A stretch of DNA of 64,000 nt from Deltaproteobacteria bacterium (GCA_040218735.1 JAVJQW010000021.1:27629-91628), one strand, 5' to 3'; positions 17,301 to 62,364 are shown, numbered from the stretch's first letter. Made by a program: numbers and translations. The notes: a model not told the origin generated them from the letters alone.

Positions 17301-19616
17301 TCAGAACTGGAGCACGATGCGCATCTGGTGGCTCTTGCCGCGTGTGAGCTGCAGGGTTCGCGCGACGCGCCGGATGCAGCGCTCCCGGGCCTTGGGGAGC
17401 GGATCCTTCTCGAAGCGCACATCCACGATACGGCCGGCGCGGCTCACGACGAGCACGATGCGGGCCTTGGAGCCCTGCGACGCGGCGCCCTCGAGGCACT
17501 TCGCGAGGCGGTTGCGGACGTCCCGCTTGCTGAGCGTGGGGAGCGCGCTGTCCCGCTTCTCTTCGGCCTTGCGACCGAGTCCGCCGGACCCGCTCGTGCC
17601 GAACGCGAGCCCGTCGTCCGCCGCCTCGGACTCGGCGGCCATCGCGGGCGCCGGCTCCGGGCTGGGGGCGCTGCGCGGCGCGGGGCGCGGCGGGCCTCGG
17701 CGCACGCGGCGCGCACGCTTCGAGTACACGCGGCCGCTGGCCGGCTTCATCATCGCGACCGACGTCGGAGGCGCCACGCCCTTCGGCGTGGGGAGCGGCT
17801 GCGCGACGGTCGTCGACTCACCCGAGTGGTTGCGCACGAGGCTGTCGACCGCGATGAAGCTCGTGTACTTCGTCATCAGGCTGTACTTCAGCCCGAGCGC
17901 GGTGACCTCGGCCTCCACGTTCGTGCGGCCGAGCGTCGCGAGGTCGTCGAGGCGACGCACCTTGTGACGCGCCCACAGCTGCCGGAGCGCTTCGTGCTCG
18001 CGGCGCGCGTCGGACGCCTTCACCGCGATGGACTGCGACCAGCGGCCCTGGCCGTTGTAGCCGGCGAGCGCGATGTGCCCGGACGGCGTGCCGCGGTACT
18101 TGCCGAACACCACGACGGGGCGCTGCGCGAACACGTCGGGGATGCTCTTCGGCTCCACGTCGTACGCGTCGAAGCCGTCGAACGAGACCTTCACGTCGGT
18201 GAGGACCGGCGACTCGATGTACGTCCGGAACTTCTCGGCGGCCTTCGCCGCGCCGGCCTGTCCGAGCACCACGAACGGCGTGCCGCGACCGACGTGCGCC
18301 ATGCCTTCGATGAGGTGGCGGTTCACGGAGTTTCCGATGCCGAACGCAAACAGGTTCGCTTCGCCGAGGTTCTCCGCGATGAGATCGAACGTGCGCTTCT
18401 CGACGGAGACGTACCCGTCGGTGACCACGACCATGCTCGTCGACATGTTCGGCTGCCGCGGCATCGCGAGGGCGCGCTGCATCGCGGGGAGGATCTGCGT
18501 CCCGCCGCCGCCGCGTTGGCGCGTGAGCATCGAGATCGCGCGCTCCTTCCAGGTCGGCGTCGCGGGCACGCTCTGCTCGTTGAGCACCTGGCTGCCGCCG
18601 GAGAAGAACATGATGTTGAAGCGGTCCTCGCGACGGAGGCCGGCGAGCAGCTCCTCGATGACGCGCTTCGCGGTGTTCAGCGGGAAGCCGCGCATCGAGC
18701 CCGAGACGTCGAGGATGAAGATGTACTCACGCGCCGGGACCATCGATGGGTTCAGACGTTTCGGCGGCTGCATCATCATCATGAAGAAATTCTCTTCAGC
18801 GCCCGGAAACATCAGGAGCCCGGTCTGGATGCCGTCGCCCGCGAGGCGGTACTTGAGGATGAAGTCACGGTTGCCGCCGTCGGCGCCGTCGATCTGCACC
18901 GAGGCGTTCGACGTGCCGTTGAACTGCGGTGCGATGCGGTGCGAGGGGCTCGTGACGGCGGAGATCGGCATGCCGGCGGCGATGTTCGCGGTGAGTCCGA
19001 ACGCGTAGGGCGCCTGGCTGCTGCTGAGGTACGGGTTCTTGGTCCACGCTTCGGACTTCGTGGTCGTGCTGCCCTGCGGGCCGTCGTAGCGCGGTCCGAC
19101 CACGGTCGGGTACACGAACTCGTAGACGCCGTCGGTGGGGACGAGCAGCTCGGAGTAGGTCATGTCCACGACGATGACGTCGCCGGGCATGATGTTCGCG
19201 ACGTTCATCGTGAAGACGTTCGGGCGCTCCTGCTCGAGGAGGCTCGCGCTCTTGCCTTCGCGTTTGGCCTGCTCGTAGAGCTTCCGCGCGGCCTTCTTCT
19301 CCTGGATCTTCGCTTCGATGGTGCGGTCGCCGATCGTCATCTTCATCTTGAAGACGGCGGCGCGGGTGGAGCCGGGGAAGACGTAGATCGCCTCGATCGG
19401 CGAGGAGCCCGAGTTCTTGTACGTCTGTTTGACGTTCACGCGGGCGATGACGCCGGCGATGTCGACGTCTGCGTGCGTCGACTGCAGGGGGAGCGCTTCG
19501 GTGTTCGTCTCCCCGATCACCCGGAAGTAGGGCGACTGCGTGCGATCTTCGTCGGCCTGGGCCGGGAGTGCGTAGAGGGTGAGGGCGAGCGCGAGGAGCG
19601 AAAAGCGGCGGACCAT
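17301..19616 (-). CDS. Secreted VIT + von Willebrand A domain protein with a TonB-C/AgmX-like C-terminal domain
   Basis: Signal peptide; vWA MIDAS motif (DVSGSM); 771 aa. Confidence 0.7.
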   Translation of the reverse strand: MVRRFSLLALALTLYALPAQADEDRTQSPYFRVIGETNTEALPLQSTHADVDIAGVIARVNVKQTYKNSGSSPIEAIYVFPGSTRAAVFKMKMTIGDRTIEAKIQEKKAARKLYEQAKREGKSASLLEQERPNVFTMNVANIMPGDVIVVDMTYSELLVPTDGVYEFVYPTVVGPRYDGPQGSTTTKSEAWTKNPYLSSSQAPYAFGLTANIAAGMPISAVTSPSHRIAPQFNGTSNASVQIDGADGGNRDFILKYRLAGDGIQTGLLMFPGAEENFFMMMMQPPKRLNPSMVPAREYIFILDVSGSMRGFPLNTAKRVIEELLAGLRREDRFNIMFFSGGSQVLNEQSVPATPTWKERAISMLTRQRGGGGTQILPAMQRALAMPRQPNMSTSMVVVTDGYVSVEKRTFDLIAENLGEANLFAFGIGNSVNRHLIEGMAHVGRGTPFVVLGQAGAAKAAEKFRTYIESPVLTDVKVSFDGFDAYDVEPKSIPDVFAQRPVVVFGKYRGTPSGHIALAGYNGQGRWSQSIAVKASDARREHEALRQLWARHKVRRLDDLATLGRTNVEAEVTALGLKYSLMTKYTSFIAVDSLVRNHSGESTTVAQPLPTPKGVAPPTSVAMMKPASGRVYSKRARRVRRGPPRPAPRSAPSPEPAPAMAAESEAADDGLAFGTSGSGGLGRKAEEKRDSALPTLSKRDVRNRLAKCLEGAASQGSKARIVLVVSRAGRIVDVRFEKDPLPKARERCIRRVARTLQLTRGKSHQMRIVLQF

Positions 19617-32618: not shown

Positions 32619-33517
32619 GCCAGCTCGTTCAGATCCGCCCGCTGATGCCGGCGGAGGGGACGTTCCCGACCGTCCCGATGAACGCGCTCGATACGCTCTG
32701 GTTCCAGGTCGCAGGGACCATCTGCAACCTGGAGTGCACACACTGCTTCATCTCCTGCAGTCCGCAGAACCACGCGCACGAGATGATGACGCTCGAGCAG
32801 GTGCTCACGTACCTCGACGAGGCGAAGCAGCTCGGCGTGCGTGAGTACTACTTCACCGGCGGCGAGCCGCTGATGAACAAGTCGATCTACGAGATGTTCG
32901 AAGCCTCGCTCGCGCAGGGGCCGACGTCGTTCCTCACCAACGGCGTGCTGATCAAGGACAAGGTCGCCGAGCGCTTGAAGGCGCTGTCCGACGCCTCCGA
33001 CTACTCGTTCGACGTGCGCATCTCGATCGACGGTTACTCTGCGGCCGACAACGATCCGATCCGCGGCGCGGGGACCTACGATCGGATCCTCGCGGGGATC
33101 GAAGCGCTCGCGAACGTCGGCCTCAACCCGGTCATCACCGTCACGGAGGTCTGCGGAGACGCCGCGACGCGCGCCGGGCGAACGCGCTTCCTCGACTTCC
33201 TGAAGAAGATCGGTCTTTCGCAGCCACGCCTGAAGATCCTGCCGCTCCTCCGGATGGGCGCGGAGGAACATCGCGAGCGCGGGTACCACCGCTGGGAGTC
33301 ACTCGCGGGTGCGCACCTGTCGAAGGACGAGCTGTCGGCGCTGCAGTGTTCGTCGTGTCGCATCGCGTGCGCGAGCGGCGTGTACGTGTGCCCGATCCTG
33401 ATCGACGCCCCCGGCGCGCGGATGGGTGACACACTCGCGTCGACGTTGCGTTCGTTCCCGCTCGAGTACCAGGCGTGCTTCACGTGCCACGCGGAGGGGC
33501 TGTCGTGCGCGACGTGA
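32615..33517 (+). CDS. Radical SAM enzyme with a C-terminal SPASM/twitch-like Cys cluster
   Basis: CNLECTHC (Cx3Cx2C); seven C-terminal Cys (CSSCRIACASGVYVCP...CFTCHAEGLSC). Its start overlaps the upstream stop. Confidence 0.8.
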   Translation: MSQLVQIRPLMPAEGTFPTVPMNALDTLWFQVAGTICNLECTHCFISCSPQNHAHEMMTLEQVLTYLDEAKQLGVREYYFTGGEPLMNKSIYEMFEASLAQGPTSFLTNGVLIKDKVAERLKALSDASDYSFDVRISIDGYSAADNDPIRGAGTYDRILAGIEALANVGLNPVITVTEVCGDAATRAGRTRFLDFLKKIGLSQPRLKILPLLRMGAEEHRERGYHRWESLAGAHLSKDELSALQCSSCRIACASGVYVCPILIDAPGARMGDTLASTLRSFPLEYQACFTCHAEGLSCAT

Positions 33518-34296
33518 CGCGCGTGGCGTTCCTCGGCGGGATCTACTCGAACTACCTCGCGCTCGAAGCCGCGATTCGCGAAGCGAAGAAGCGCGGTGTG
33601 GATCAGATCTGGGCGCTCGGTGACTTCGGGGCCTTCGGGCCGCACCCGAACCGCTCCGTCGAGATCCTCCGCGAGCACGACATCCCCGCGATCCAAGGCA
33701 ACTACGAGGAGTCGTTGTCGACGAACGCTGAGGACTGCCACTGCGGCTACACGGATCCGCGCGACAATCACTACGCGCAGATCAGCTACGACTACACGTT
33801 CGAAAACACCGCGTCGGCGTACAAGGCGTGGATGGGGACGCTGCCGAAGCACGCGAGGCTCGAGCTCGACGGGCAGCGGCTGCTGCTCTGTCACGGCTCG
33901 CCGCGGACCATCAACGAGTTCCTCTGGCGGTCGAACACGCCCACGCCGTTCATCGAGCGAATGCTGGTGGAACACGACACCGACCTGGTCGTCTGCACGC
34001 ACACCGGGATTCACTGGGAGCGTCGCGACGATCGAGGACGCGGCGTCGTGAACGTGGGGGCGCTCGGGCGCCCGGCGAACGACGGTCGGACGAACGTGTG
34101 GTTCGCGATCCTCACGGGGCAGGGCGGGCGCGTGGACGTCGAATTCGTGCCTGTCGCGTACGACCACCATCGCCTCGCGCGTGAGATGTCCGATGAGGGA
34201 CTCCCTGACGAGTTCGTCGAAACCATCGAGACGGGGTGGTGGACGACCTGCCTGGAGATCCTCCCTGCGAAGGAGCGCGCCCAGGGCCGCTACTGA
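33514..34296 (+). CDS. Calcineurin-like metallophosphoesterase
   Basis: GTG start overlaps the rSAM stop (GTGA). GDxxD..GNHE-like motifs (ALGDFGAFGP, IQGNYEE). Confidence 0.7.
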   Translation: MTRVAFLGGIYSNYLALEAAIREAKKRGVDQIWALGDFGAFGPHPNRSVEILREHDIPAIQGNYEESLSTNAEDCHCGYTDPRDNHYAQISYDYTFENTASAYKAWMGTLPKHARLELDGQRLLLCHGSPRTINEFLWRSNTPTPFIERMLVEHDTDLVVCTHTGIHWERRDDRGRGVVNVGALGRPANDGRTNVWFAILTGQGGRVDVEFVPVAYDHHRLAREMSDEGLPDEFVETIETGWWTTCLEILPAKERAQGRY

Positions 34297-34377
34297 GTCG
34301 GGCGCGACTGAGGCACGCGCCCCACATCGGCCGATGGCCCCAAACGCTCGGTCCACCCGATTTGTTACCACTAGGGC

Positions 34378-35154
34378 ATGCGAAAGGTGCTCTACGCCGC
34401 GGTCGCCCTGTCCCTCGTCGCCTGTGCCGACGAAGAGAAGAAGGAGGAGGTCGGCGTCGCCGCGAACGAAGCGGTCGCCGAGCCCGAAGCTCCGGGCGCC
34501 GACGTCGCCGAGCTGAAGGAAGACCTCGCGAAGATCGTGGGCGCGGTACGCGACCGTGACGTCGCCGGCCGTCGCGCGACGTGCCTGAAGGCGGTGCCGA
34601 AGATCGAAGCGATGCAGGTGAAGACGCCGGACGACAAGGCGCTCACCGCCGTCGCCACGGACCTGCTCCCGATGTGCGTGGAGATGACCGAGACGAAGAA
34701 GCTCCTCGACAAACTCGCGAACCCGCCGCCGTCGATCCAGCTCACCGGCGCGTACGCGCAGTTCACGCGGGGGGACCTCGTGAAGACCTACAAGAAGGCC
34801 AAGCGCGCCGCGAAGCGGAAGCAGGATCCGGCGCCGTTGTGCTCCGAGATTCGCGTGCTCACCGACCACTTCGGCAGCAAGAAGTCGAAGAAGACGCGCC
34901 GCCTCGTGAAGAAGGCGTCGAAGTTCTGCGACGGCTACGCCCACCTCGCGTCTGCGCGCTACCACATGCGCGTCGTCGACAAGGCCCTCCAGGAGGGCGC
35001 GATGGACGCGCTCGTGAGCTCCTGCGTGCACGGCGTGAAGGAGCTCGCCCACGCGCCCGCCGGGAAGCTGCACGACGCGCTCGAGGCCAAGGCCCAGTCT
35101 CAGTGCGTCGAGGCGGTCGCGATGCAGGGGATGTTGCGATCCGACGCCACCTGA
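34378..35154 (+). CDS. Hypothetical lipoprotein
   Basis: LSLVACADE lipobox; Lys-rich. Confidence 0.45.
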   Translation: MRKVLYAAVALSLVACADEEKKEEVGVAANEAVAEPEAPGADVAELKEDLAKIVGAVRDRDVAGRRATCLKAVPKIEAMQVKTPDDKALTAVATDLLPMCVEMTETKKLLDKLANPPPSIQLTGAYAQFTRGDLVKTYKKAKRAAKRKQDPAPLCSEIRVLTDHFGSKKSKKTRRLVKKASKFCDGYAHLASARYHMRVVDKALQEGAMDALVSSCVHGVKELAHAPAGKLHDALEAKAQSQCVEAVAMQGMLRSDAT

Positions 35155-35170
35155 GTGATTCGAAGGCCCG

Positions 35171-36553
35171 GTGGCCGTCGAGATCCACTTCGAGCACGGG
35201 ACGATCGTCGTCCCGAAGACGGACGAGGTCCCCGAGGCCGTCGACAAGTTCCTGAGCCTCGATCAGCGCAGCGGCAGCTACCGCGCGCCCGCCCAGCAGT
35301 ACCGCGACCTCGTGCTCACGCTGAAGCGTGACGGCGTCGACTTCGACGACCGCGCGCGGCGCTTCGATCCCCTCGCGTTGGAGCTGACCAAGAAGATCGA
35401 TCCCTTCCCGCACCAGGCGGAGGCGCTCGAGAAGTGGTGGACGGCGGGGCGGCGCGGGATCGTCGAGCTCCCCACCGGCGCCGGCAAGACGATCCTCGCG
35501 GTGCTCGCCATGGCGCGGGTGCAGCGGCCCACGCTGGTGGTCGTCCCGACGATCGACCTGCTCACGCAGTGGTCGAAGGTGCTGGAGGAGTTCTTCGGCG
35601 AGTCGATTGGGATGCTCGGCGGCGGGTCGCACGACCGGCAGCCGATCACCGTCGCCACGTACGACTCGGCGCAGATGCAGATCGAGTTCATCGGCAACCA
35701 CTTCGGGTTCCTGGTCTGCGACGAGTGCCACCACCTCCCCGCGCCGGCGTACCGATTCATCGCGGAGGGATCGATCGCACCGTTCAGGCTCGGGCTCACC
35801 GCGACGCTCGAACGCACGGACGGCGGGGAGCAGACGGCGATGAACCTGCTCGGGCCGCTGGTGCATCAGGTCGGGATCGAGACGCTGGAGGGGGACTACC
35901 TCGCGCCGTACGACCTGGAGTCGGTCGGCGTGCACCTGTCCGAGGAGGAGCAGGCGCGCTACGACGCGTCGCGCTCGCAGTACCTGACGTTCCTCCGCGG
36001 GAGCGGCGTGCGGCTCGACCGTCCGCAGGGCTGGGCGCAGTTCATCATGCGCGCGCACCAGAGCGACGAGGGGCGCGCGGCGTTTCGTGCGTATCGTGAG
36101 CAGAAGCGGATCGCGATCGCTTCGGAGGCGAAGCTCGCCGCGCTGTGGGCCGTGCTCGTCAAACACCGCGAGGACCGGACGATCGTCTTCACCGAGGACA
36201 ACGAGACCGTGTACCGGCTCTCGCGGCGGTTCATGTTCCCGGCGATCACGCACCAGACGAAGGCGCCGGAGCGCAAACACTGGCTGACCGCGTTTGCGAA
36301 GGGCGACGTGCGGGTGCTGCTGACCTCGAAGGTGTTGAACGAGGGGGTCGACGTCCCCGAGGCGAACGTCGGCGTGGTGTTGAGCGGGAGCGGGAGCGTG
36401 CGGGAGCACGTGCAGCGGCTCGGGCGGATCCTGCGCAAGCGCCCGGGGAAGCGCGCGGTGCTCTACGAGATCTTCACGGAGGTCGCGGCGGAGGTGAACA
36501 TCACCGAGCGTCGTCGGCAGCACCGCGCCTACCAGAAGGACGAGCCGTGCTGA
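35171..36553 (+). CDS. XPB/Ssl2-like superfamily-2 DNA helicase
   Basis: Walker A GAGKT, DECH box, helicase motif VI; 460 aa. Confidence 0.8.
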   Translation: MAVEIHFEHGTIVVPKTDEVPEAVDKFLSLDQRSGSYRAPAQQYRDLVLTLKRDGVDFDDRARRFDPLALELTKKIDPFPHQAEALEKWWTAGRRGIVELPTGAGKTILAVLAMARVQRPTLVVVPTIDLLTQWSKVLEEFFGESIGMLGGGSHDRQPITVATYDSAQMQIEFIGNHFGFLVCDECHHLPAPAYRFIAEGSIAPFRLGLTATLERTDGGEQTAMNLLGPLVHQVGIETLEGDYLAPYDLESVGVHLSEEEQARYDASRSQYLTFLRGSGVRLDRPQGWAQFIMRAHQSDEGRAAFRAYREQKRIAIASEAKLAALWAVLVKHREDRTIVFTEDNETVYRLSRRFMFPAITHQTKAPERKHWLTAFAKGDVRVLLTSKVLNEGVDVPEANVGVVLSGSGSVREHVQRLGRILRKRPGKRAVLYEIFTEVAAEVNITERRRQHRAYQKDEPC

Positions 36554-37746
36554 CGCGGGACTTGCTGCACTACCGAACGAAGGGCGGCGTGGTGCGCCCG
36601 GTGTACGTGAAGCCGGACGACGCCGAGCGGCTCGCGTACGCGGGGGCCTTGGTGGCGATCGTCGAGGAAGCGCTCGGTGAGGAGCGGGGCGTTCTGACCG
36701 AGGCGCTCGACGGGCGCGCGCGTGGGGAGAAGCGGCAGAAGTTCGCCAAGGGGTTGGTGAAGCTGCTGACGGACCGCATGACGTTCGACGAGCCGCCGAA
36801 GGACGCCGAGGCGCTGCGGCGGACGACGTTCGAGGCGGCGGCTTCGTTGATGCGCAACCTCGAAGAGGACGCGACGATCGCGGACTACGAGGCGGCGCTG
36901 GGTGCGGACCGTGACCTCGAGCTCACGCGCGCGCAGATCTACGCGGACCTCGCCGAGCACCGGAAGTTCTTGGAGTGGAAGGCGCTCGACGCGGCGGGGC
37001 TCCTCGAGCGGTACAACCTCGCGCAGGCGCAGGGGCTCGTGATGTTCGCGCGGCGGTTGTCGATCGCGTTCGAGGAGGTCGACACCGCAGTCGTGCGGCG
37101 GGTGTTCCGGTGGTTGAAGTTCTGCCGGTTGGTCGCCGAGCTCGAGAAACACGGCGACGCGTTTGTGCTGCACGTCGAAGGGCCGGCCGCGATGTTCGAG
37201 AGCTCGAAGAAGTACGGGTTGCAGCTCGCGATCTTCCTCGAGGTGGTGCCGCTGCTCCCGAAGTTCACGCTGGAGGCGGTCGTGGAGCTGCCGCGCCGCG
37301 ACTCGGTGACGTTCATGCTCACGGACGAGGACGGGCTCGTCTCGCCGTTGAAGGCGGTGGTGGGGCACGTGCCGGAGGAGGTGACGACGACGCTCGAGAA
37401 GCTCTCCTCGATCGAGGGGTGGACCGTCGATCTCGAGACGGTGCCGCGCAGCGTGGGGGCGTCGGGCTGGTGTGTCCCGGACCTGCGTTTCTCGAGGACG
37501 GACGGCGCCGAGATCGCGGTCGAGCTGTTCCACGCGTGGCACAAGGGGGCGCTCCTCCGGCGCCTCGACGAGCTCGCGTCGAAGCCGGACGCGGGGCTCT
37601 TCCTCGGCGTGGATCGGGCGGTCGCGAAGAAGAAGGACATCGCGGAGCGCATCGACGATCACCCGCAGGTCTTTGCGTTCAACAAGTTCCCTTCGGTGCG
37701 TGCGTTGACGACCGTGGTGAAGCGGTTCGAAGAAGGGACGTCGTGA
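36547..37746 (+). CDS. DUF790/Bax1-like nuclease partner of XPB
   Basis: GTG start overlaps the XPB stop. Size and position match archaeal/bacterial Bax1. Confidence 0.6.
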   Translation: MLTRDLLHYRTKGGVVRPVYVKPDDAERLAYAGALVAIVEEALGEERGVLTEALDGRARGEKRQKFAKGLVKLLTDRMTFDEPPKDAEALRRTTFEAAASLMRNLEEDATIADYEAALGADRDLELTRAQIYADLAEHRKFLEWKALDAAGLLERYNLAQAQGLVMFARRLSIAFEEVDTAVVRRVFRWLKFCRLVAELEKHGDAFVLHVEGPAAMFESSKKYGLQLAIFLEVVPLLPKFTLEAVVELPRRDSVTFMLTDEDGLVSPLKAVVGHVPEEVTTTLEKLSSIEGWTVDLETVPRSVGASGWCVPDLRFSRTDGAEIAVELFHAWHKGALLRRLDELASKPDAGLFLGVDRAVAKKKDIAERIDDHPQVFAFNKFPSVRALTTVVKRFEEGTS

Positions 37747-39060
37747 CGGACGACGCCCAGACACGCCTGCAGGTGGGCGCCCAGCACCCGGTGATTCGCG
37801 CCGAGCGACCCTTCGTGCTGCGCGTCGGCGACGTCGAGCACGGGCCGTTCATGGGCTCGGTGAGCGTGGGGAGCGCGGCGTCGAACGGGGTGGTGCTCGA
37901 CGATCCGACGGTCTCGCGCTTTCACTTCGAGCTGTCGAGGGACCAGCGGGGGATTCGCATCGTCGACGTCGGGTCGAAGAACGGCACCTTCGTCGGCGAC
38001 GCGCGCGTGCGGGACGCGACGATCGACAGCGGCGCACGGATCCGCGTGGGGGACACCGTGCTCGAGCTGTCCGTCAACGACACGCCGGAGCTGGTGCAGG
38101 ACGACAAACGCTCGGGCTTCGGCGGTTTGATCGGTACGAGCCCTTCGATGCAGGCGTTGTTTCGTCTGCTCGAGAAGCTCGCGGTGGTCGACACGCCGGT
38201 GCTGGTGCAGGGGGAGACGGGCACCGGAGACGGGCACCGGCAAGGACCTCGTGGCGCGCGCGCTGCACGAACAGGGGCGTCGGGCCGCGGGGCCCTTCGT
38301 GGTGTTCGACTGCGGCGCGGTGGCGCCGACGCTCGCGGAGAGTGAGCTGTTCGGTCACGTGCGCGGTGCGTTCACCGGAGCCGACGCCGATCGCGAAGGT
38401 GCGTTCGAGCGCGCCGCGGGCGGGACGTTGTTCCTCGACGAGATCGGAGAGCTCGATTCGGCGCTGCAACCCAAGTTGCTTCGGGCGCTGGAGTCGAAGA
38501 CGGTGCGTCGCGTCGGTGGGGCCGAGGAGCGGGCGGTCGACGTGCGGGTGGTCGCGGCGACGCACCGCGATCTGCGAAAGATGGTGAACGCGGGGACGTT
38601 CCGCGAGGACCTCTTCCACCGCATCGCGGTGTTCCTGCTGCGTGTGCCTCCGCTGCGGGAGCGGCCGGACGACATCGAAGCGCTGGCGCAGCACTTCCTC
38701 GCGCGGGCGCTCGCGGGGACGGACTTCTCGGCGGCGCCGAAGATCACGCCGGCGTCGCTGTCGACGCTCGTGTCGCGTGCGTGGACGGGGAACGTTCGAG
38801 AGCTGCGCAACGTGGTGGAGCGTGCGTTGGTGCTCGGGGATCTGGAGCTCGCGGTGGCCGGCGATCTGTCGTCGGGCCTCGCGGAGCGTGAAGCGGAGGG
38901 CCTCAGCCTGGAGGAGGCGAAGCGGCGCTTCGAGCGGAGTTATCTGGTTCGGCTGCTCGCGCGTCACGACGGGGATCGCGCCGCTGCGGCCACGGAGGCC
39001 GACGTGCACGTGAAGTCACTCGGGCGCCTGCTCAGGCGCCACGGGCTCGTACAGAGCTAG
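37743..39060 (+). pseudogene. FHA-domain sigma-54-dependent transcriptional activator, interrupted by a 13-bp tandem duplication inside the Walker A codons
   Basis: FHA domain (VSRFHFELS...GSKNGTFV). GETGTG followed by the duplicated gagacgggcaccg (38214-38226 and 38227-38239), which shifts the frame. GAFTGA, the AAA+ module and a C-terminal HTH continue in the +1 frame (38251-39060). Confidence 0.7.
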
Positions 39061-39604
39061 CGGCGATCGCGAAGAGGAGCGCGGCTTCGATCCAGGTGTT
39101 GATGCGTACACCGAGGAGCGCGGCGCCGATGACGACGTCCACGGCGTGCAGGGAGACGACGCGGACCGCGACGTAGGCGACGAGCGTCAGGCTCGCGGCG
39201 AGGGCGAGCGCGAGGCGTGCGGAGCGGCGCGCGGTGAAGACGGCGAAGGCTGTGACACCGGTCGCCGCTGCGGCGACGGCGAAGATGATGATGTGCTGCG
39301 CGCCGCGCCGGTCGGCGTAGGCGGTCGAGGAGACGTCGAGCGAACGCACGAGGTGGTCGATGTCGATCGCGCGTGCGAGCGCGAGCAACACACAGACGGT
39401 CGCGACGAAGAGCCAGCCGAAGGCGCGCCAGGCGCGCGCTGGTGCGCGGCGCCCGCGTTCACGAATGGCCCGTAGGCAGGAGCGCACGGTGGCGAGGAGG
39501 TGCTTCGGCGTGAAGGGCGGGGCGTCGTTCTTCTCGCGGTGGGCGGCGCGCGCGGCGAGGACGGCGACGACGAGATAGAGAGCTACCTTGAGCGCGCCGA
39601 GCAT
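39032..39604 (-). CDS. Hypothetical integral membrane protein
   Basis: Four to five hydrophobic segments; convergent 29-nt overlap with the activator gene. Confidence 0.4.
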
Positions 39605-39645
39605 CGCGCGATCTCAACACGGCGGCGGGTCGGTGTCGCGACGGA

Positions 39646-40659
39646 TCAGTGTCGCGGGGGGAGGAAGTGAATTGCGCGCCAGAGGCCTTCGATGAAGCCG
39701 TCGCCCACTTCGCGTGCTTCGAAGTGGTCGGCGATCGCGACGGCGGCGTCGCCGTGGGCGCTCGCGTCTTCGAGGAGGAAGCCCGCGAAGACGATGGGGA
39801 GCGCGTCGTAGGCGCCGGTGCGGCCTTCGTCGCGGATCGTGCGGAGGGTCTTGCCGAGGTCCGAGCCGGCGAGGCCGGAGCGCAGGTCGCCCCACGCGCC
39901 CCACGGGTCGATCACTTCGTGTTGCACGGCGCCGAGCTTCGACAGGCGCGTGTCGTCTTCGCCGTAGGCGAGGCCGACGTAGAAGAGGATGTGAACGAGC
40001 TGGTTGTTGCCGCCGTCTTGGTACTCGCCCTTGAGATCGGCGCCGTCGGTGGGATCGATCGTGCCGTTCAAGCCGCCGGGGATCGCGGCGTTCATGTGGC
40101 CGACGTACTCGGCGATCGCCTGGGTCATCGGCGCGCCGGAGAAGAACGGCGTGCCCTCGACGGTCTGAGTGAAGCGGTGGCCCACGTGCAGGGCCATGAG
40201 GTCCGTCAGGACGTGGTCGAAACGTTCACGATCCGACAGGCGCGGGTCGTCGCGGTAGTGATCGACGAGGCGTTGCGCGCTGTCGACCGCGAGCTGTCCG
40301 CCCGGCGTGCCGTTTGCGATGGCGTCGTCGATCGTGAGGAGCTCGCGCTCGAGGGTCTCGCGGCGCTCCTTCATCGGGATCTTCGCGGCGGCGTCCGCGG
40401 CTTCGGCGACGTACGCGGCCTGCGCGCCCGGGATGAGCTCGAGCGGGACGCCCTGGTGCTGGGAGACGTTCGCGCCGAGGAAGAACGCACCGGCGCCGAT
40501 GAGCGCCGCGACGACGGTCTTGGTGGGGCGGCGCCGCTTTGGGCCGGGGAGCGGCGCGGTGCGCGGTGCGTCGGGTGCCGGGGTTTCGCGGTCCAGCGGG
40601 GCGCCGGAGGAGACGGGGCGGAAGAAGAGACGTCCCGGAGCTTGAAGGGCTTTCAGCAT
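39646..40659 (-). CDS. Hypothetical protein (N-terminal TM anchor)
   Basis: 337-aa ORF with coding-like composition. Confidence 0.45.
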   Translation of the reverse strand: MLKALQAPGRLFFRPVSSGAPLDRETPAPDAPRTAPLPGPKRRRPTKTVVAALIGAGAFFLGANVSQHQGVPLELIPGAQAAYVAEAADAAAKIPMKERRETLERELLTIDDAIANGTPGGQLAVDSAQRLVDHYRDDPRLSDRERFDHVLTDLMALHVGHRFTQTVEGTPFFSGAPMTQAIAEYVGHMNAAIPGGLNGTIDPTDGADLKGEYQDGGNNQLVHILFYVGLAYGEDDTRLSKLGAVQHEVIDPWGAWGDLRSGLAGSDLGKTLRTIRDEGRTGAYDALPIVFAGFLLEDASAHGDAAVAIADHFEAREVGDGFIEGLWRAIHFLPPRH

Positions 40660-40802
40660 GAGCGGGGCTCTCGACCCATCGTGTTTATCGGCGCTTGGGG
40701 TGCTTGGGTTGCTCCGTCGGCTGCCCGAGTGCGCCGCCGGCCGACCGACCCATCCGTCAGGCGGGGGAACGTGGCCCGGGCGCGCGGCGCGTACGGTCGG
40801 CG

Positions 40803-41825
40803 GTGATGCGTCGGTGGTCGTGGCTCCCGATCTTGCTGCTCGCGACGGCTTGTCAGTGCGGCGAGCGCGCCGGGGGCGGGGGTCCGTTCGACGCGGGCGA
40901 GGACGCAGGCGTCGACGCTGGGCGGGCGCGCCTGGACGGGGCGGTCCTGGGTGCGGACGCGGGCTCGGGTTCGGACGCGGGCTCGGGTTCGGACTCGGGC
41001 TCGGATGCGGGGTCGGGCTCGGACGCGGGCTCGGGTTCGGACGCGGGCTCGGGTTCGGACGCGGGCTCGGGCTCGGATGCGGGCTCGGGTTCGGGTTCGG
41101 ACGCGGGCTCGGTTTCGGACGCGGGCTCGGTTTCGGATGCGGGCTCGGGTTCGGACGCGGGCTCGGTTTCGGACGCCGGCCCCGCCACCGACGCCGGCGC
41201 CCCGCGCGACGCCGGCGCCCCGCGCGACGCCGGCGCCCCCCGCGACGCCGGCTCCCCGCGCGACGCCGGACTCCCCCGCGACGCCGGCCCCCCGCGCGAC
41301 GCCGGCCCCCCGCCCGGCACCGGCGATCTCTGGATCGAGGTCGACTACACCAGCGCCTTCTCCCCGCAGTCCCCCGCGTGGAGCTACTCCGTCTCCCCCG
41401 GCTGGCCGCCCTCGAGCTGGGCGTTCACCGGGAGCAACACCAACGGCGCCGAGGCCTGGGACCGCTTCAACAACATGCAGGTCACGAGCGATCCGATCGG
41501 CACCGTCCTGGTGATCGGCGGCTCGTCTCAGCTCCAGCTCATGATCGGCCTCGTCCCGCTCACCACGTACACCGGCGCGACCGTCGAGCTGGAAGGTCGA
41601 AGCCGCGCGACGAGCTCTCCGGTCTTCTTCGACGTCACCAATCCACTGAATGGATGCGGCGCCTCCGGGACGATGAACCAGGACTGGACGCCCGACATCG
41701 TGCAGCTCGACCTCACGGGCTGCTTCATCCCCGGCGGCGCGGTGCAGGCCGTGCGCGTCGATCCCACGAGCGGCACCGTGGCGTTGCGCCGAATGCGCCT
41801 CACGTTGCACGGTGCGCAGTGGTGA
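40803..41825 (+). CDS. Lipoprotein with (DAGSGS)n and (DAGxPR)n low-complexity repeats and a C-terminal globular domain
   Basis: [10 protein letters not shown] lipobox; repeat array spanning 40954-41300. Confidence 0.55.
40954..41175 (+). repeat. About 12 tandem copies of the 18-bp unit ggacgcgggctcgggttc
   Basis: Direct in-frame tandem repeat; followed by 7 copies of the cgcgacgccggcNcc unit. Confidence 0.8.
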
Positions 41826-42382
41826 CGATCCGCATCGCGACCCTCGAAGACGCCGCCGCCATCCGCGCCATCTATGCGCCTCACGTCGCGACGCTCACGT
41901 CGTTCGAGCAATCGGTGCCGCCCCTCGAAGAGATGCTGCGCCGCCTCGCCGCGACCCTCGAACGCACGCCGTGGCTCGTCCTCGACGAAGGGGAGGTCGT
42001 CGGCTACGCGTACGCCGGGCCGTACCGTTCACGGCACGCCTACCAGTGGTCGGTGGAGGCCTCCGTCTACGTCGCCGCTTCCCACCAGCGGCGAGGCATC
42101 GCGCGCCGCCTCTACGCGGCGCTGTTCGCCGCGCTCGAGCTGCAGGGCTTCGTGAACGTCTACGCCGGCATTACGCTCCCGAACGACGCGAGCGAAGCGT
42201 TCCACCGCGCGCTCGGGTTCGAGCCGATCGGCGTGTACCGCGGCGTGGGCTACAAACACGGCGGCTGGCGCGACGTCGCGTGGTCGGCGAAACGCCTCGC
42301 GGCGCCGGACGGTGAGCCGCCTCCGCCGCGGCTGCTCCCCGAAGCGCGCCAAGCGATCGCCACCTGCGTCGCCGCGTTCTGA
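41822..42382 (+). CDS. GNAT acetyltransferase (phosphinothricin-acetyltransferase-like)
   Basis: GTG overlaps the upstream stop; GNAT core RRGIARRLYAALF. Confidence 0.7.
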   Translation: MTIRIATLEDAAAIRAIYAPHVATLTSFEQSVPPLEEMLRRLAATLERTPWLVLDEGEVVGYAYAGPYRSRHAYQWSVEASVYVAASHQRRGIARRLYAALFAALELQGFVNVYAGITLPNDASEAFHRALGFEPIGVYRGVGYKHGGWRDVAWSAKRLAAPDGEPPPPRLLPEARQAIATCVAAF

Positions 42383-42804
42383 GTTGCGCCTGTCGCAACT
42401 CGGCTTGCACTCGGAATCGACCAGCCCCCTCTTCGGAGCCGCCGACGTGTGGCGCGACTCTTGTATCCCACGGCGCCGTGCCCCCGCCCGTTCGACGTCG
42501 GCAGGACCCGATCGTGTTCCCGCGCACGACCCGTCGCCCCGACGCGACGGAGCGCCCCGACCTGAGGCCCGCCGACGCCCCCGCGCGGGTGCGTCCGCAC
42601 GACCGCACCGTCGTGGACCGCAGCGTAGAGACCGGCGGCCGCATTCGCCCCGAGCTGCGCACCGGGGCCGCACGTCGCATCACACCCGCCGGCCTCGGCG
42701 CGGACCGAGGCCTCGGCACCATCCCGGTCGGCGGCCTCACGACGCACGGCGCACCGTCCGACGTCGGCGCTCTACCGGGGCGCACCGGCATCGTCCCGCC
42801 CGCG

Positions 42805-43894
42805 ATGCGGCGCGCGCCGCGCCCGCACGAAGCCGCGGGCCCCTCCGTCACGCGCCCGGATCCGTTTGCGACCCCCGAGCCCGCCCCCCGCGGGCGCGGC
42901 GGCTTCTCCGGCCCGATCGTCGGACCGGGTCAGCTCGACGAAGCCACCGAAGCACGCCTCCTCGCCGAGCACGGCAACGAAGGCGTCATCGCTGCGTACG
43001 GAGGCTTCGACCCGAACCGCCCGCCCGTCCTCCTCGTCCACGGCATCGACGACAGCCCCGAGCGCACGCGCGACGTCGCGGCCGAGCTCGACCGCCGCGG
43101 GATGCAGGTCCTCGTCTTCTTCTACGACGACGCCGACACGCGCACGCACACCAGCGGCGAGCAGCTCGCCCGGCAGATGTCGTCGCTTCGCCAGCAGTAC
43201 GGCGAGGACGCCTCGCTCGACATCGTCGCCCACTCGATGGGCGGCCTCGTCACCCGCTCCGCGCTCAACTCCCTCGCGCAGCCCGGATGGTATGACGGCA
43301 ACCCCAGCACCGCGGGCGCCGAGCCGCGCGCGGGGTTCGACTCGATTCGCTTCCGCGCGCTCGACACCGCGTGGACCGGCTACCCGCACGAGCCGGCCGC
43401 GATGTCCTCACTCGTCCGCGGGTTCCTCGACACGAACCAACACGCCGATGACCGACATGCGCGGCAACAGCCAGATGTTCTCGCACCTCTTCGAGCCGCG
43501 CCTCGACGGCGTCGACATCCGCTCCACCGCCGCCTTCAACATCCCGGGCATCCACGCCCGCGACGCGCACCGCTCCGTGCACGACATGAATGCCGACCAA
43601 CGCGAGCAGCTCGTGGCGTGGCTCGACGGCGGACCAAGACCGACCGACGAAGCCGCGGGTCACCTCGCGAGCTCGTGGGAACAGGACGCTCGCTTCGGCG
43701 CGCTGCGATCCGAAGTGCGCGCGGCGCTTGCGAGCGGGGAGCTGTCGTCGAGCGGCGACCCCGGCGATCTCGCGGCCGTCGCCGACCGTGTGATGCCCTC
43801 CGCGAACGGCTCCCACACCAGCATCCTCACGGACGCGATGTTCCACCGCAGCCTCGTCGACGACCTCGCGGACGAGCTCGCGCCGTCGCCGTAG
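42805..43894 (+). pseudogene. Alpha/beta-hydrolase (lipase-like) gene with an apparent +1 frame change near 43440
   Basis: LLVHGIDDS...AHSMGG nucleophile elbow in frame 1. Plausible protein continues in frame 2 after ...GFLDTN / TPMTDMRGNSQMF. Frame 1 beyond that point is Arg/Pro-rich nonsense. Confidence 0.5.
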
Positions 43895-44590
43895 TCAGGA
43901 TCTCTTGAAGAGCTTCGAGAAGAACGAGCCGAGCCCCGAGTCCTTCTTCGCCGCGCGGCTGTTGATCAGTCGGATGCCGCGCGCCGCCTCGACGTTGTTC
44001 GGCTCCCACTCCAGGCACTTGCGCCACCAGCGCTTCGCTTCATCGGGGCGGTCCGTCGAAAAGTAGATCTGCCCGAGGTAGTTGTACCCGGCGGGCATCG
44101 ACTCCTGCTTCTTCACCGCGGCCTTGATCTCGTCGATCGCCGCTTTGACCTTCTTCTCGCTCTTCTTGCCGAGGTGGAACATCACCCAGCCGTGGTGCGC
44201 CTGGTAGAGCGGGTCGTCCGGGTTGAGGTCCATCGCCTCTTCGAGCTTCTCCTTGGCGACGGGCCAGTCGCGGCGCCGCAGCGCGGCTACCGCGTCGTCG
44301 ACGATCGACTCGGCGCGCAGGATCGCGTTCACGTCCGTGGAGAGCCCCTGCTTCTCCCGGTCCAGGCGCACCATGTATTCGGCGCGCTGCTTGGGGTCCG
44401 TCAGCGTCTCGTAGGCCTCGCCGATGTACTGGAAGATCTCGTCGAGCTTCTGTTTGTCGGGACCGAGGTCCATCCCCGTGTAGGCGTCCGCGTGCCAGCG
44501 CTTCGCGAGGGCGTGGAACGAGGCCTTCAGGCGGTCGGCGTCAGTGTCCGGGTCGGCGCCGAACAGCTGGAAGTAGTCCCGCCGCTGCAT
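43895..44590 (-). CDS. DnaJ (J-domain) plus TPR protein
   Basis: DYFQLFGADPDTDADRLKASFHALAKRWHAD J-domain; TPR-like C-terminus. Confidence 0.6.
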   Translation of the reverse strand: MQRRDYFQLFGADPDTDADRLKASFHALAKRWHADAYTGMDLGPDKQKLDEIFQYIGEAYETLTDPKQRAEYMVRLDREKQGLSTDVNAILRAESIVDDAVAALRRRDWPVAKEKLEEAMDLNPDDPLYQAHHGWVMFHLGKKSEKKVKAAIDEIKAAVKKQESMPAGYNYLGQIYFSTDRPDEAKRWWRKCLEWEPNNVEAARGIRLINSRAAKKDSGLGSFFSKLFKRS

Positions 44591-55685: not shown

Positions 55686-57142
55686 CTAGTTACGACTTGG
55701 CCACATCGCAGGAGGCCCGCGGGGCGGCTCACACGCGGCGAGGTCGAGGAACGTCTTCGTCGACCTGACATCGCTCCCGAGGAGCGATGGGGGAGCGCTC
55801 GGCGCGTGTGACGGCGGTCGGTATCGACTCGAGCGGTTCGTTGGTGGTCGCGGGCTGGTGACGGGGAGAGGGCTCGGCGGACGCCGTGCGCCACGAGGAC
55901 GGGCGTCGTGCTCCTGGATGAAGTCGCAGCGTCGACTCGCGAGGGGGCCGTGCCGGCCGTCGGTCGTTGCGCTGAGATTCGGGCGAGCGTCCTCGCGCTC
56001 AGTTGGCGGAGGATGCTCTCTTGTTCGAAGCTCAGGCGCTCGGGGTGGAGTTCTGAAACTCATTCGCTTCAGTGGAATATACTTGACTCACGCCCGACAA
56101 CACTGTCTGCTCAATCAAGTCGGATGCAGCTTGCGTTTCATCTCAGGACTTGGGGCGGACGACGCAAGGGGGCGGGTCGTAAGCCGGTCGGCGCTCGCGC
56201 CGGCGTTTCGCACCGCACTCGCCCCTCCGTATCCGTACATCAACCGCTGCACGTGACGCTTCGGGTACGGGAAGCCGTTCCGAACCTGAGGACCTCGACC
56301 ATGTTCCGCGCAGTTCGGGTCGCGCTGGAGGCCGGGGCCGAGCGCTTCGGTTTTCGACTCGTGCACTTCTCGGTGCTCCGGAACCACCTGCACCTGATCG
56401 CTGAGGCCGACGACAAGGTGGCGCTCGCGCGGGGGATGAAGGGGTTGAAGGTTCGGGTCGCGCGGGCGATCAACCGGGTCGCGGGACGGCGCGGGACGGT
56501 GTTCTCGGACCGCTACTATGCGCAGGCGCTCCGTTCGCCTTCTCAGACGCGAAACGCGCTGGCCTACGTGCTCAGCAACTTTCGCAAACACGAAGCCCAG
56601 CGGGGGCGGCGGCTCGCGCGGGGCTTCATCGATCCCTGCTCTTCCGCCGCCGCGTTCGACGGGTGGCGCGAGCGCGACGCCGGGCCGTCGACGCTAGCGC
56701 GGGCGGTCGGCTGGATGCTGCGGAAGGGGTGGCGAAAGCGTGGGCTGCTCTCGGTGGCTGCTGTGCCTGGCGAGGGGCTGCCGCGGAGGGCGTGCCTGCG
56801 CGAGTGTAGCCGAGACCTCGGCGCTCTCGGACGTGGGTGACGTGTCCCTCGACGAGCGCGAACCGAACGTGCACGCGCGGCGCCCGCCCGGGTCCAAGCG
56901 TAGCGACCAAAGACCGGCGCGGCTCCCACGCGACTCAGCGCACTGAGTTCCATCCTCGAGCTGTCCTTTGGCACGGCCGTCGTGAGGCCCTCTCCCCGTC
57001 ACCAGCCGGCGATCAAACAACGAACCGCTCGAGCCGACACCGACCGCCGTCACGCCCGCCCCGAGCCGGCCCCCTCCTCGGGAGCGAAGTCACGTCGAGC
57101 TCGAGCGTCGCTGCGTATCCGCCTCGCTCGATGTGGCCAAGT
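55686..57142 (+). mobile_element. 1.46-kb element carrying a Y1/HUH (IS200-RAYT-like) transposase, bounded by a 22-bp perfect terminal IR and ~200-bp imperfect subterminal IRs
   Basis: TAGTTACGACTTGGCCACATCG at 55687-55708 equals the reverse complement of 57119-57140. Inward matches include TCGCTCCCGAGGAG, GTGACGGCGGTCGG..CTCGAGCGGTTCGTTG and GGCTGGTGACGGGGAGAGGG on both arms. Sits exactly between two convergent gene stops. Confidence 0.7.
56124..56840 (+). CDS. Y1 (HUH) transposase, IS200/IS605-TnpA / REP-associated tyrosine transposase-like
   Basis: HUH motif RNHLHLI; catalytic Tyr region SDRYYAQAL; N-terminal extension RRKGAGRKP...HPLHVTLRV. Confidence 0.7.
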   Translation: MQLAFHLRTWGGRRKGAGRKPVGARAGVSHRTRPSVSVHQPLHVTLRVREAVPNLRTSTMFRAVRVALEAGAERFGFRLVHFSVLRNHLHLIAEADDKVALARGMKGLKVRVARAINRVAGRRGTVFSDRYYAQALRSPSQTRNALAYVLSNFRKHEAQRGRRLARGFIDPCSSAAAFDGWRERDAGPSTLARAVGWMLRKGWRKRGLLSVAAVPGEGLPRRACLRECSRDLGALGRG

Positions 57143-60892: not shown

Positions 60893-61002
60893 CGCAGGTG
60901 ACTCGTGCACGGCGCGCACGTGCGCGCACGTGTTTCGAGGGCGCGAAGCGCGCGACGACGCACGCGCGGTGTTTGGCACCGCGCTTGCGAAGTCCTGTGC
61001 GC

Positions 61003-62364
61003 ATGAAGATCGACAACGAACGGAACTCACTACGACGCACCGTCGGCATCGGCGCGCCCATGCCCGCGCGTCCGCGCGCTCGCGCCGCCGTGGCGCCTCG
61101 GCCGCTCCAGGAGGTGCGCCTGACGGAGCTCGGTCATTCGTTTCAAGAGAACATGGCGCCGCTCGCGACGAAGGTCCTCGACGCTTCGTCGCTGGTGCGG
61201 TTCCAGACCAACGTGGGGGGCCTCGCGAGCCCGCCGCCGCCGTCCGGTACGCCGGGTAACGGGCTGCCGCCGCCTCCCGCGAGCCAGGCCGACGCCTTCG
61301 CGAACCTCCAGGAGCTCGCAGCGGACGCGGAGCCCCTGCCGGACCTCGACATCGACCAGGCGGACGTCGATGCCGTGAACGACCAACTCGAGATCGCGCG
61401 CGCGGCGACCGAGGCGGGGGACTACGCGACGGCGCTCGCGGCTTACGAAGCGTTGGGTTTGCCGGTCGAGGACACCGCCAACCTCACCGACGAGGAGCTC
61501 GCGACCCTGGTCCTCCTCGGCCTCGCCGAGGTCGACGTAGACAACGGCACGTACGAGTTCGACGACTACGATGCCACGTATCAGGAGCTACAGGGCCTCG
61601 CGCTGAATGCGCAGCTGATGGTGGCGATGGCGAACGCCGGCGTCACGCCCTCCGAGAACCCGCCGACCCAAGCCGAGGCGCAGCTCTACATGGAGTCGCT
61701 GGTCGCAGCTGGCGCTTCGACCGAGGAGCTGTTCGCGGCGGCGAGCGCCTTCGTCGAGGGGACCGTCGTGCTCTACAACCACGCCGGAATGACCGGTGAA
61801 CCCGCGTACGGTGCGGACACGCCGCGCTACGTCCTCATGGACGGCGACCAACGCCACGAGTTCGCGGACGAAGCTGACGCGCTCGCGATGGCGAAGGAGC
61901 TGGACGTCCACTACGTGAAGAGCGAGTCGACGTTGCCCGACAGCTGGGACGATGCCTACAGCCTGGACACGAGCGGCGCCCGCCACATCGGAGACTGCGA
62001 AAACACGCTGTACCTCATGAACCAGCTCCTCTCGTACGCCGGATTCGAAGATGTTGGGTCGGCGATGATCAGTGGAGGCGACGACGTGATCGCGCACATG
62101 GTCGGGATCTACCGCGACGGAGAGGACTACTACGTCACCTCCAACGCCGACTTCGCGCGGGTCAACTCCAGCACGACCAACGTCACGAACGCCAGCATCG
62201 AGAAGGCGGTCAAAGCGGCCGCCGTCGACGTCTACGGAACGAGCTTTGGCCTCACCTTCACGTACGCCAAGCAGCCGAGCGGCGCCGCGGGCGACCCAGG
62301 GGTGGAGAGCATGCGCCGCGCTCAGGAGTACGCGACGCTCGGGTACGAAGAGGAGCTGCTGTAA
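61003..62364 (+). CDS. Hypothetical acidic protein (no recognisable domain)
   Basis: 453-aa ORF with coding-like codon usage. Confidence 0.4.
   Translation: MKIDNERNSLRRTVGIGAPMPARPRARAAVAPRPLQEVRLTELGHSFQENMAPLATKVLDASSLVRFQTNVGGLASPPPPSGTPGNGLPPPPASQADAFANLQELAADAEPLPDLDIDQADVDAVNDQLEIARAATEAGDYATALAAYEALGLPVEDTANLTDEELATLVLLGLAEVDVDNGTYEFDDYDATYQELQGLALNAQLMVAMANAGVTPSENPPTQAEAQLYMESLVAAGASTEELFAAASAFVEGTVVLYNHAGMTGEPAYGADTPRYVLMDGDQRHEFADEADALAMAKELDVHYVKSESTLPDSWDDAYSLDTSGARHIGDCENTLYLMNQLLSYAGFEDVGSAMISGGDDVIAHMVGIYRDGEDYYVTSNADFARVNSSTTNVTNASIEKAVKAAAVDVYGTSFGLTFTYAKQPSGAAGDPGVESMRRAQEYATLGYEEELL

Follow-up and report, generated by a model that had tools for sequence, protein, structure and literature searches.

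Disruption of an FHA-domain sigma-54 activator gene by a 13-bp tandem duplication in its Walker A codons in a marine myxobacterial clone

Within the window, by which we mean the whole 64-kb stretch of DNA that was analysed, three genes overlap end to start on the plus strand between 35171 and 39060. These encode an XPB-type helicase, a DUF790/Bax1-like protein and a sigma-54 enhancer-binding protein (bEBP) with an FHA domain, the last of which is disrupted by a 13-bp tandem duplication (Table 1). A convergent gene comes next, and as the activator is thus the last gene of the apparent operon, its frameshift has no downstream polar target. A 190-aa ORF with no Pfam match (39032-39604, minus strand) overlaps the 3' end of the activator convergently by 29 nt, with a dN/dS of 0.35 against its orthologue in the metagenome-assembled genome (MAG) E2-BRE-13 where the neighbouring genes have 0.04-0.10. 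The order XPB-DUF790-activator is kept in relatives at 99%, 95% and 93% DNA identity (loci L088, L001 and L089), and the XPB-DUF790 neighbours were absent beside the 71% orthologue and the other loci with which synteny was compared. The idea of a conserved operon logic joining XPB, DUF790 and the activator was rejected, the synteny being confined to the 99%, 95% and 93% relatives.

When one copy of the repeat is deleted, the activator ORF runs uninterrupted from its GTG start to its stop codon and encodes 434 aa, the length of its orthologues; an earlier note on this DNA had given 438 aa for the restored ORF, which is four residues too many. Pfam searches of the repaired protein identified an FHA domain (PF00498, E 3.9e-15, residues 40-103), a Sigma54_activat domain (PF00158, E 3.3e-66, residues 129-294) and an AAA_lid_14 domain (E 2.2e-17, residues 301-381). 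The C-terminal tail may be helix-turn-helix-like. Pfam HTH_8 was absent from the repaired protein at E <= 0.01, but orthologues conserve the tail, with F392 ... L431 invariant, and PF02954 is found in more distant relatives.

Table 1. Features of the activator locus in the window, and other assembled loci in which the doubled 13-mer was read
Feature or locus	Position or source	Strand	Remark
XPB-type helicase with XPB damage-recognition domain	35171-36553	+	upstream, co-oriented
DUF790/Bax1-like protein	36547-37746	+	TGA stop overlaps activator GTG start as GTGA
Disrupted FHA-domain sigma-54 enhancer-binding protein gene, whole	37743-39060	+	GTG start at 37743; 434 aa with one copy removed
Upstream fragment, 200 aa	37743-38345	+	162 native residues + 38 out-of-frame residues
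Copy 1 of the 13-bp unit GAGACGGGCACCG	38214-38226	+	codons E158-T159-G160-T161 and first base of G162, Walker A
Copy 2 of the 13-bp unit	38227-38239	+	the extra copy, absent from all relatives
AAG codon of the invariant Walker A lysine, K163 (repaired numbering)	38242-38244	+	out of the N-terminal frame
Downstream remnant ORF, 269 aa	38251-39060	+	GTG start at 38251; +1 frame open
Loci L083, L086	GCA_040216985.1 (MAG A1-SPW-13), SPW culture		doubled 13-mer
Locus L087	GCA_040220335.1 (MAG C1-SOL-14), SOL culture		doubled 13-mer
Loci L084, L090	Logan SRR26209547, CHI culture		doubled 13-mer
Locus L085	Logan SRR26209612, SPW culture		doubled 13-mer
Locus L091	Logan SRR26209228, further run		doubled 13-mer

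The unit GAGACGGGCACCG is present twice in the window sequence, head to tail and without mismatches. Tandem Repeats Finder confirmed the exact two-copy duplication that had been reported at 38214-38239, returning a span of 38213-38240 with period 13, 2.2 copies and 100% matches; the slightly longer span arises because a flanking G or GG leaves the register of copy 2 uncertain by 1-2 nt. A search of both strands of the 64-kb window found no further copy of the 13-mer. The expectation by chance was estimated from 200 first-order Markov randomisations of the window, in which perfect tandem duplications of period 13 or more occurred at a mean of 0.005 per 64 kb. The 13-bp repeat is real and far beyond chance.

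The duplication falls on the codons for GETGTGK, the Walker A motif of the activator. Residues G157, E158, T159, G160, G162 and K163 are invariant across 10-11 aligned orthologues (98-49% identity), and none of these aligned proteins has an insertion; the duplication therefore lies inside the P-loop and cuts the lysine codon off from the N-terminal frame. The earlier statement that the repeat breaks the Walker A of a sigma-54 activator is thus upheld, with the GETGTGK codons interrupted and K163 out of frame. No single frame of the gene as sequenced holds an intact P-loop of the form G-x4-GK, which reappears on deleting one 13-bp copy, and on this basis the locus was classed as a frameshifted (pseudo)gene of the FHA bEBP family. 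The frame shifts by +1 after GETGTG, and the original frame then reads D-G-H-R-Q-G-P... up to a stop at 38345. The second copy had also been described as encoding ETGT and shifting the frame by +1; the shift is correct, but ETGT occurs only in the shifted frame, and the frame that is actually read gives DGHR.

Two products can be derived from the broken gene. The 162 native residues of the upstream fragment comprise the FHA domain, the linker and the start of the AAA+ domain as far as GETGTG. The downstream remnant has the sequence AAGGA 4 nt upstream of its GTG codon, so that translation of the remnant is possible; the IMG annotation starts it instead at 38299, giving 253 aa. The remnant keeps GAFTGA, Walker B, the lid and the C-terminal tail, and is without beta-1 and the P-loop. 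The GAFTGA residues (G204, A205, F206, T207, G208 and A209) and the Walker B residues D228 and E229 are invariant in the alignment and present in the downstream frame, in agreement with the earlier observation that the GAFTGA/AAA+/HTH portion is intact and open in the other frame.

The window belongs to an uncultured marine myxobacterium of the family Ca. Kuafubacteriaceae (Myxococcota) that lives in cultures of the cyanobacterium Coleofasciculus. It does not share the phototrophy of its sister species, Candidatus Photomyxococcus marinus. The type of Ca. P. marinus is MAG E2-BRE-13, with 11.9 Mb and 69% G+C, from the culture of Coleofasciculus sp. BRE (PMC13043013). Four non-phototrophic MAGs, SAH, SPW, CHI and SOL, share dDDH values of 99.4-99.8% with one another and of 57% with the sister Ca. 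P. marinus (PMC13043013), and the host of the window is this SAH/SPW/CHI/SOL clone. The window corresponds to part of contig Ga0573880_001 (11,524,684 bp) of JGI metagenome 3300058926, with which its positions 33299-44060 are identical.

Exactly two copies of the 13-mer were present in 8/8 loci of the strain for which DNA was read, one on the JGI contig, three in two NCBI MAGs and four in assemblies of three Illumina runs (Table 1). The MAG data are Illumina NovaSeq PE150 reads assembled with MEGAHIT, at a coverage of 108x for SPW-13 and 257x for CHI-08 (PMC11785472, PMC13043013). At the protein level, exact records of the 200-aa fragment, including its out-of-frame tail, were found in three NCBI MAGs and in Logan contigs, those of the 269-aa remnant in four NCBI MAGs, and those of the 253-aa form in four Logan contigs. 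The two further NCBI MAGs represented by their split products rather than by DNA are presumably CHI-08 and SAH-06. Compared with window 27743-49078 over lengths of 3.5-20.6 kb, the loci bearing the duplication have no substitution or a single one: none in 20.6 kb for A1-SPW-13, and one in 3.5 kb for C1-SOL-14. As the duplication-bearing assemblies all belong to one clone, they represent independent sequencings and not independent origins. The same clone is found in the separately maintained Coleofasciculus cultures SPW, CHI and SOL, and presumably in SAH. Such near-identity suggests either transfer between the cultures or a very recent common source.

Comparison with other strains, including relatives at about 99%, 95% and 93% identity, found a single copy and an intact 434-aa gene in these relatives. 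The best intact match (P0001, 98% aa identity) lies on JAVKDZ010000003.1 of GCA_040223155.1, MAG E2-BRE-13, which has one copy and is 95.06% identical to the window at the nucleotide level over 13.5 kb. With 122 substitutions in 12.4 kb, a Logan contig of DRR530892 is about 99% identical to the window; it likewise has one copy, and its intact 434-aa activator is one residue off the repaired window protein (P35L). GCA_030429805.1, at 93% DNA identity, has one copy and an intact gene, as do the orthologues at 84-49% aa identity. Among the matches listed in the orthologue-alignment scan, the nearest GTDB species representative is HK-STAS-MYXO-34, at 71% aa identity. An exact look-up in a collection of 15 billion proteins found the repaired protein of the strain in no assembly, and the ancestral state was therefore taken from the 99% relative.

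Comparison with E2-BRE-13 over 13.5 kb and with DRR530892 over 12.4 kb found no uncompensated coding indel other than the 13-bp insertion; the remaining gaps against E2-BRE-13 are intergenic, form compensating pairs or fall within an 18-bp repeat array. Against E2-BRE-13 the dN/dS is 0.064 over the whole activator gene and 0.040 beyond the break, as compared with 0.039 for the XPB gene and 0.10 for the DUF790 gene. Two substitutions could be assigned to the branch of the strain, both synonymous. The broken gene holds no extra stops or indels, and neither dN/dS nor the branch substitutions detected relaxed selection or decay. The low dN/dS and the intact downstream sequence therefore indicate that the gene was under purifying selection until very recently and that its decay has not begun.

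We consider it very probable that the repeat is a genuine and very recent 13-bp slippage duplication that became fixed in one clone and left a null sigma-54 activator, a nascent pseudogene. A recent slipped-strand duplication with pseudogenisation had been named as one possible cause at this locus, and the single-copy, intact genes of the relatives and the low dN/dS support it. The ancestral sequence would have read GG-AGACGGGCACC-GG, with GG dinucleotides 13 nt apart, and the most likely origin of the duplication is primer-template slippage during replication between these GG microhomologies, by which 13 nt were copied again. The junction of the duplication is uncertain by GG, and the microhomology amounts to just 2 nt. 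The junction is also where a 7-bp inverted repeat, CCGGTGC/GCACCGG, ends, the arms of which can pair. Local folding was no stronger than that of shuffled sequences (z 0.15 and -0.07), so that slippage driven by a CCGGTGC/GCACCGG hairpin was rejected and no structural driver is claimed.

The functional consequences of the duplication can be predicted from the motif that it interrupts. The sequence itself shows that the +1 shift after GETGTG puts the catalytic lysine and everything downstream of it out of frame, with termination at 38345. Neither the FHA fragment with its junk tail nor any internally initiated remnant would be expected to bind or hydrolyse ATP, or to remodel the sigma-54 holoenzyme. 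Since the P-loop is not joined to the rest of its domain in either product, neither is likely to be active and the allele would be null; this disruption, together with the established biochemistry of AAA+ proteins and bEBPs, points to loss of function. By analogy with its family, the intact activator may be under phosphothreonine control by a Ser/Thr kinase. As the lesion is a perfect two-copy repeat, precise reversion by reverse slippage is possible in principle.

The same property underlies the suggestion of a phase-variable ON/OFF switch, in which the duplication would form and be precisely excised, toggling a sigma-54 regulon between subpopulations. We regard this as unlikely. A perfect two-copy tandem is a substrate for exact slippage reversion, and the lack of decay after the break would fit an allele that is often ON, although it fits a very recent event equally well. 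There is precedent in the tandem duplications of cap3A in Streptococcus pneumoniae, which, according to the summary of Waite et al. 2001 in PMC11163986, turn the gene OFF and by their reversion turn it ON again. The duplication described here resembles these in that it lies within an ORF and should be OFF, with exact loss expected to restore ON; in cap3A, however, as that account presents it, switching was seen experimentally and involved many different duplications, whereas here a single duplication is fixed in the clone and no revertant was seen. The strain carries two copies in all eight loci, from at least three separately maintained cultures, and a one-copy allele in its background is absent from the 15-billion-protein collection. 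The relatives at 99%, 95% and 93% have one copy and none has three, nor is the repeat tract conserved, and two 13-bp units are few against the multi-copy tracts of short units at classical contingency loci. The possible switch raised in the earlier note thus gained no positive support, there being no copy-number variation among the assembled loci of the clone. Its more specific cap3A-type form, in which an FHA-controlled sigma-54 regulon would be reversibly off in culture-adapted populations with rare revertants below the consensus, appears to us slightly less plausible again.

The intactness of the FHA domain raises a different reading, that of a functional gene fission in which a stand-alone FHA protein and a truncated AAA+/DNA-binding protein are both used. 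The FHA protein may then, for example, bind phosphothreonine as a decoy in a Ser/Thr kinase pathway, and the remnant may act as a repressor or a poison subunit. The 200-aa product retains the whole FHA domain, translation of the remnant could start at its GTG codon, and both annotation pipelines call two genes. We nevertheless judge fission to be highly improbable, because the break lies inside a motif, the P-loop, and not between domains. The last 38 residues of the FHA product are junk, the remnant without beta-1 and Walker A would be unlikely to fold or oligomerise normally, and the split architecture is absent among the best 120 database relatives apart from the strain's own C-terminal remnant. 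The event is also too recent to show selection on the new forms.

A sequencing or assembly artefact, with a true genome holding one copy and an intact 434-aa gene, is very remote. JGI metagenome contigs were scanned for the two alleles with a pattern of conserved flanks and a variable gap; this gave 0 matches, missing the source contig too, and favours neither side. The two-copy junction recurs in the JGI, MEGAHIT MAG and Logan assemblies, three pipelines that drew on at least four separate libraries, high-coverage Illumina PE150 among them. This concordance effectively refutes the error hypothesis; the alternative of sequencing or assembly error that the earlier note had allowed is contradicted by two-copy Illumina assemblies from at least three cultures and by the independent JGI assembly. 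Tandem insertions of 13 bp are not known to be typical errors of the sequencing platform involved. Nor is there a second frame-breaking indel across the compared 13.5 kb, and further neighbouring ORF pairs of the window, where checked, encode distinct proteins with complete domains. A general problem with indel errors in the contig was considered and rejected; the suspicious pairs 52397-54229/54231-55685 and 58505-60892/60898-62364 encode unrelated complete-domain proteins, namely an SSF transporter, an RCC1 protein, a GH92 enzyme and one without a Pfam match. Perfect 10-bp tandems at 18925, 56480 and 60912 were associated with no identified broken ORF. The agreement of the consensus assemblies also points to the two-copy allele as the majority form in the clone.

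Translational recoding, by which a +1 ribosomal frameshift or transcriptional slippage would restore the full-length protein, is scarcely conceivable: a +1 shift anywhere in 38227-38345 would rejoin the frames, but transcriptional slippage would lack the long A/T run that it needs, the local structure is ordinary (z about 0), a shift within the repeat would give GETGTETGTGK, with four extra P-loop residues and Thr at the first-Gly position of G-x4-GK, and the relatives have no frameshift, so that there is no conserved recoding signal.

With the recent slippage duplication as the preferred explanation, both the protein and the lesion can be compared with known systems. FHA-domain sigma-54 enhancer-binding proteins of the Myxococcota, NtrC-like activators with FHA at the N terminus, were reportedly described by Jelsbak, Givskov & Kaiser 2005 PNAS (a reference cited in PMC11980068). 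The activator belongs to the same phylum and has the same order of an FHA domain, an AAA+ domain with GAFTGA and a putative C-terminal DNA-binding tail; hundreds of Myxococcota FHA-bEBP relatives are present in databases, and the fusion of FHA and AAA+ domains is found in all relatives listed. It differs in that the copy in the window is frameshifted in Walker A and is probably inactive, and its position at the end of an XPB-helicase/DUF790 operon is known only from the closest relatives. The AAA+ core aligns end to end with those of ZraR, NtrC, NtrC1, FleQ and PspF (1ojl, 6j7e, 5exx, 1ny6, 2bjw) at E 1e-68 to 1e-58, with ZraR, NtrC, FleQ and NtrC1 at 1e-68 to 1e-62, and all have Walker A, GAFTGA, Walker B and GNVREL (sensor II region) in common. 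In contrast to the activator, these proteins carry receiver, PspA-binding or REC-like modules and not FHA, and they are intact.

Slipped-strand mispairing produces indels at short direct repeats, of which the CTGG hotspot of lacI is the classical example. The lesion is similar to slippage of the lacI type in its short junction microhomology (GG) and its perfect head-to-tail product. It is unlike the lacI CTGG hotspot in having a microhomology of 2 nt, in being a single event and in lacking a pre-existing multi-copy tract.

The mutation is an ordinary strain-specific null mutation, with protein and lesion both typical of their kinds, and its main value lies in the correction of annotation and in guidance for work on the organism; it offers no new mechanism or question. 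The halves of the broken gene are annotated apart, as MEQ8272064/5, MEQ8566327/8, MEQ9542436/7 and MEQ8984555 and in IMG on Ga0573880_001. In NCBI and IMG the N-terminal half is labelled 'FHA domain-containing protein' or 'hypothetical protein', and the C-terminal half 'sigma 54-interacting transcriptional regulator' or 'NtrC family response regulator'. The halves in both databases should carry a flag that they form one frameshifted gene. The locus would provide a clean and datable case in which a microhomology-mediated tandem duplication kills a regulator, the clone concerned having spread through several long-maintained cyanobacterial cultures, while wild and sister lineages, including the phototrophic Ca. 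P. marinus, hold the gene under strong purifying selection. Isolation and physiology work on this myxobacterium should reckon with one sigma-54 activator being probably dead in the culture-borne clone, as judged from its sequence.

Sigma-54 promoters were searched for around the activator and across the window. With up to 2 mismatches allowed, none was found in the intergenic regions flanking the activator, and a nearby sigma-54 promoter as its target was rejected, the perfect site lying 22 kb off. This site, TGGCACCGCGCTTGC at 60974-60988 on the plus strand, is the sole perfect match to TGGCAC-N5-TTGC in the window. It sits 15 nt before an in-frame ATG at 61003, in an ORF of the 450-aa class that extends to 62364 and has no Pfam match. 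A 16-bp perfect palindrome, CACGTGCGCGCACGTG at 60917-60932, starts 57 bp upstream of TGGCACCGCGCTTGC and is separated from it by a gap of 41 nt; it coincides with a 10-bp tandem of two copies of GCGCGCACGT. From this arrangement, CACGTGCGCGCACGTG and TGGCACCGCGCTTGC form a candidate pair of enhancer (UAS) and sigma-54 promoter.

Further repeats were noted in two other ORFs of the window. A putative lipoprotein (40806-41825, plus strand), with a signal peptide ending LLATAC, contains in-frame arrays of 18-bp repeats at 40954-41313, encoding (DAGSGS)n and then (DAGAPR)n. MAG A1-SPW-13 lacks one 18-bp unit of the array and DRR530892 differs by 6 bp, which could be real length variation or a collapse of short reads. 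An ORF at 55908-56840 (plus strand) has a weak match to an IS200-like Y1 transposase (E 4.7e-07) and holds a perfect 10-bp tandem of two copies of CGCGGGACGG at 56480-56499.
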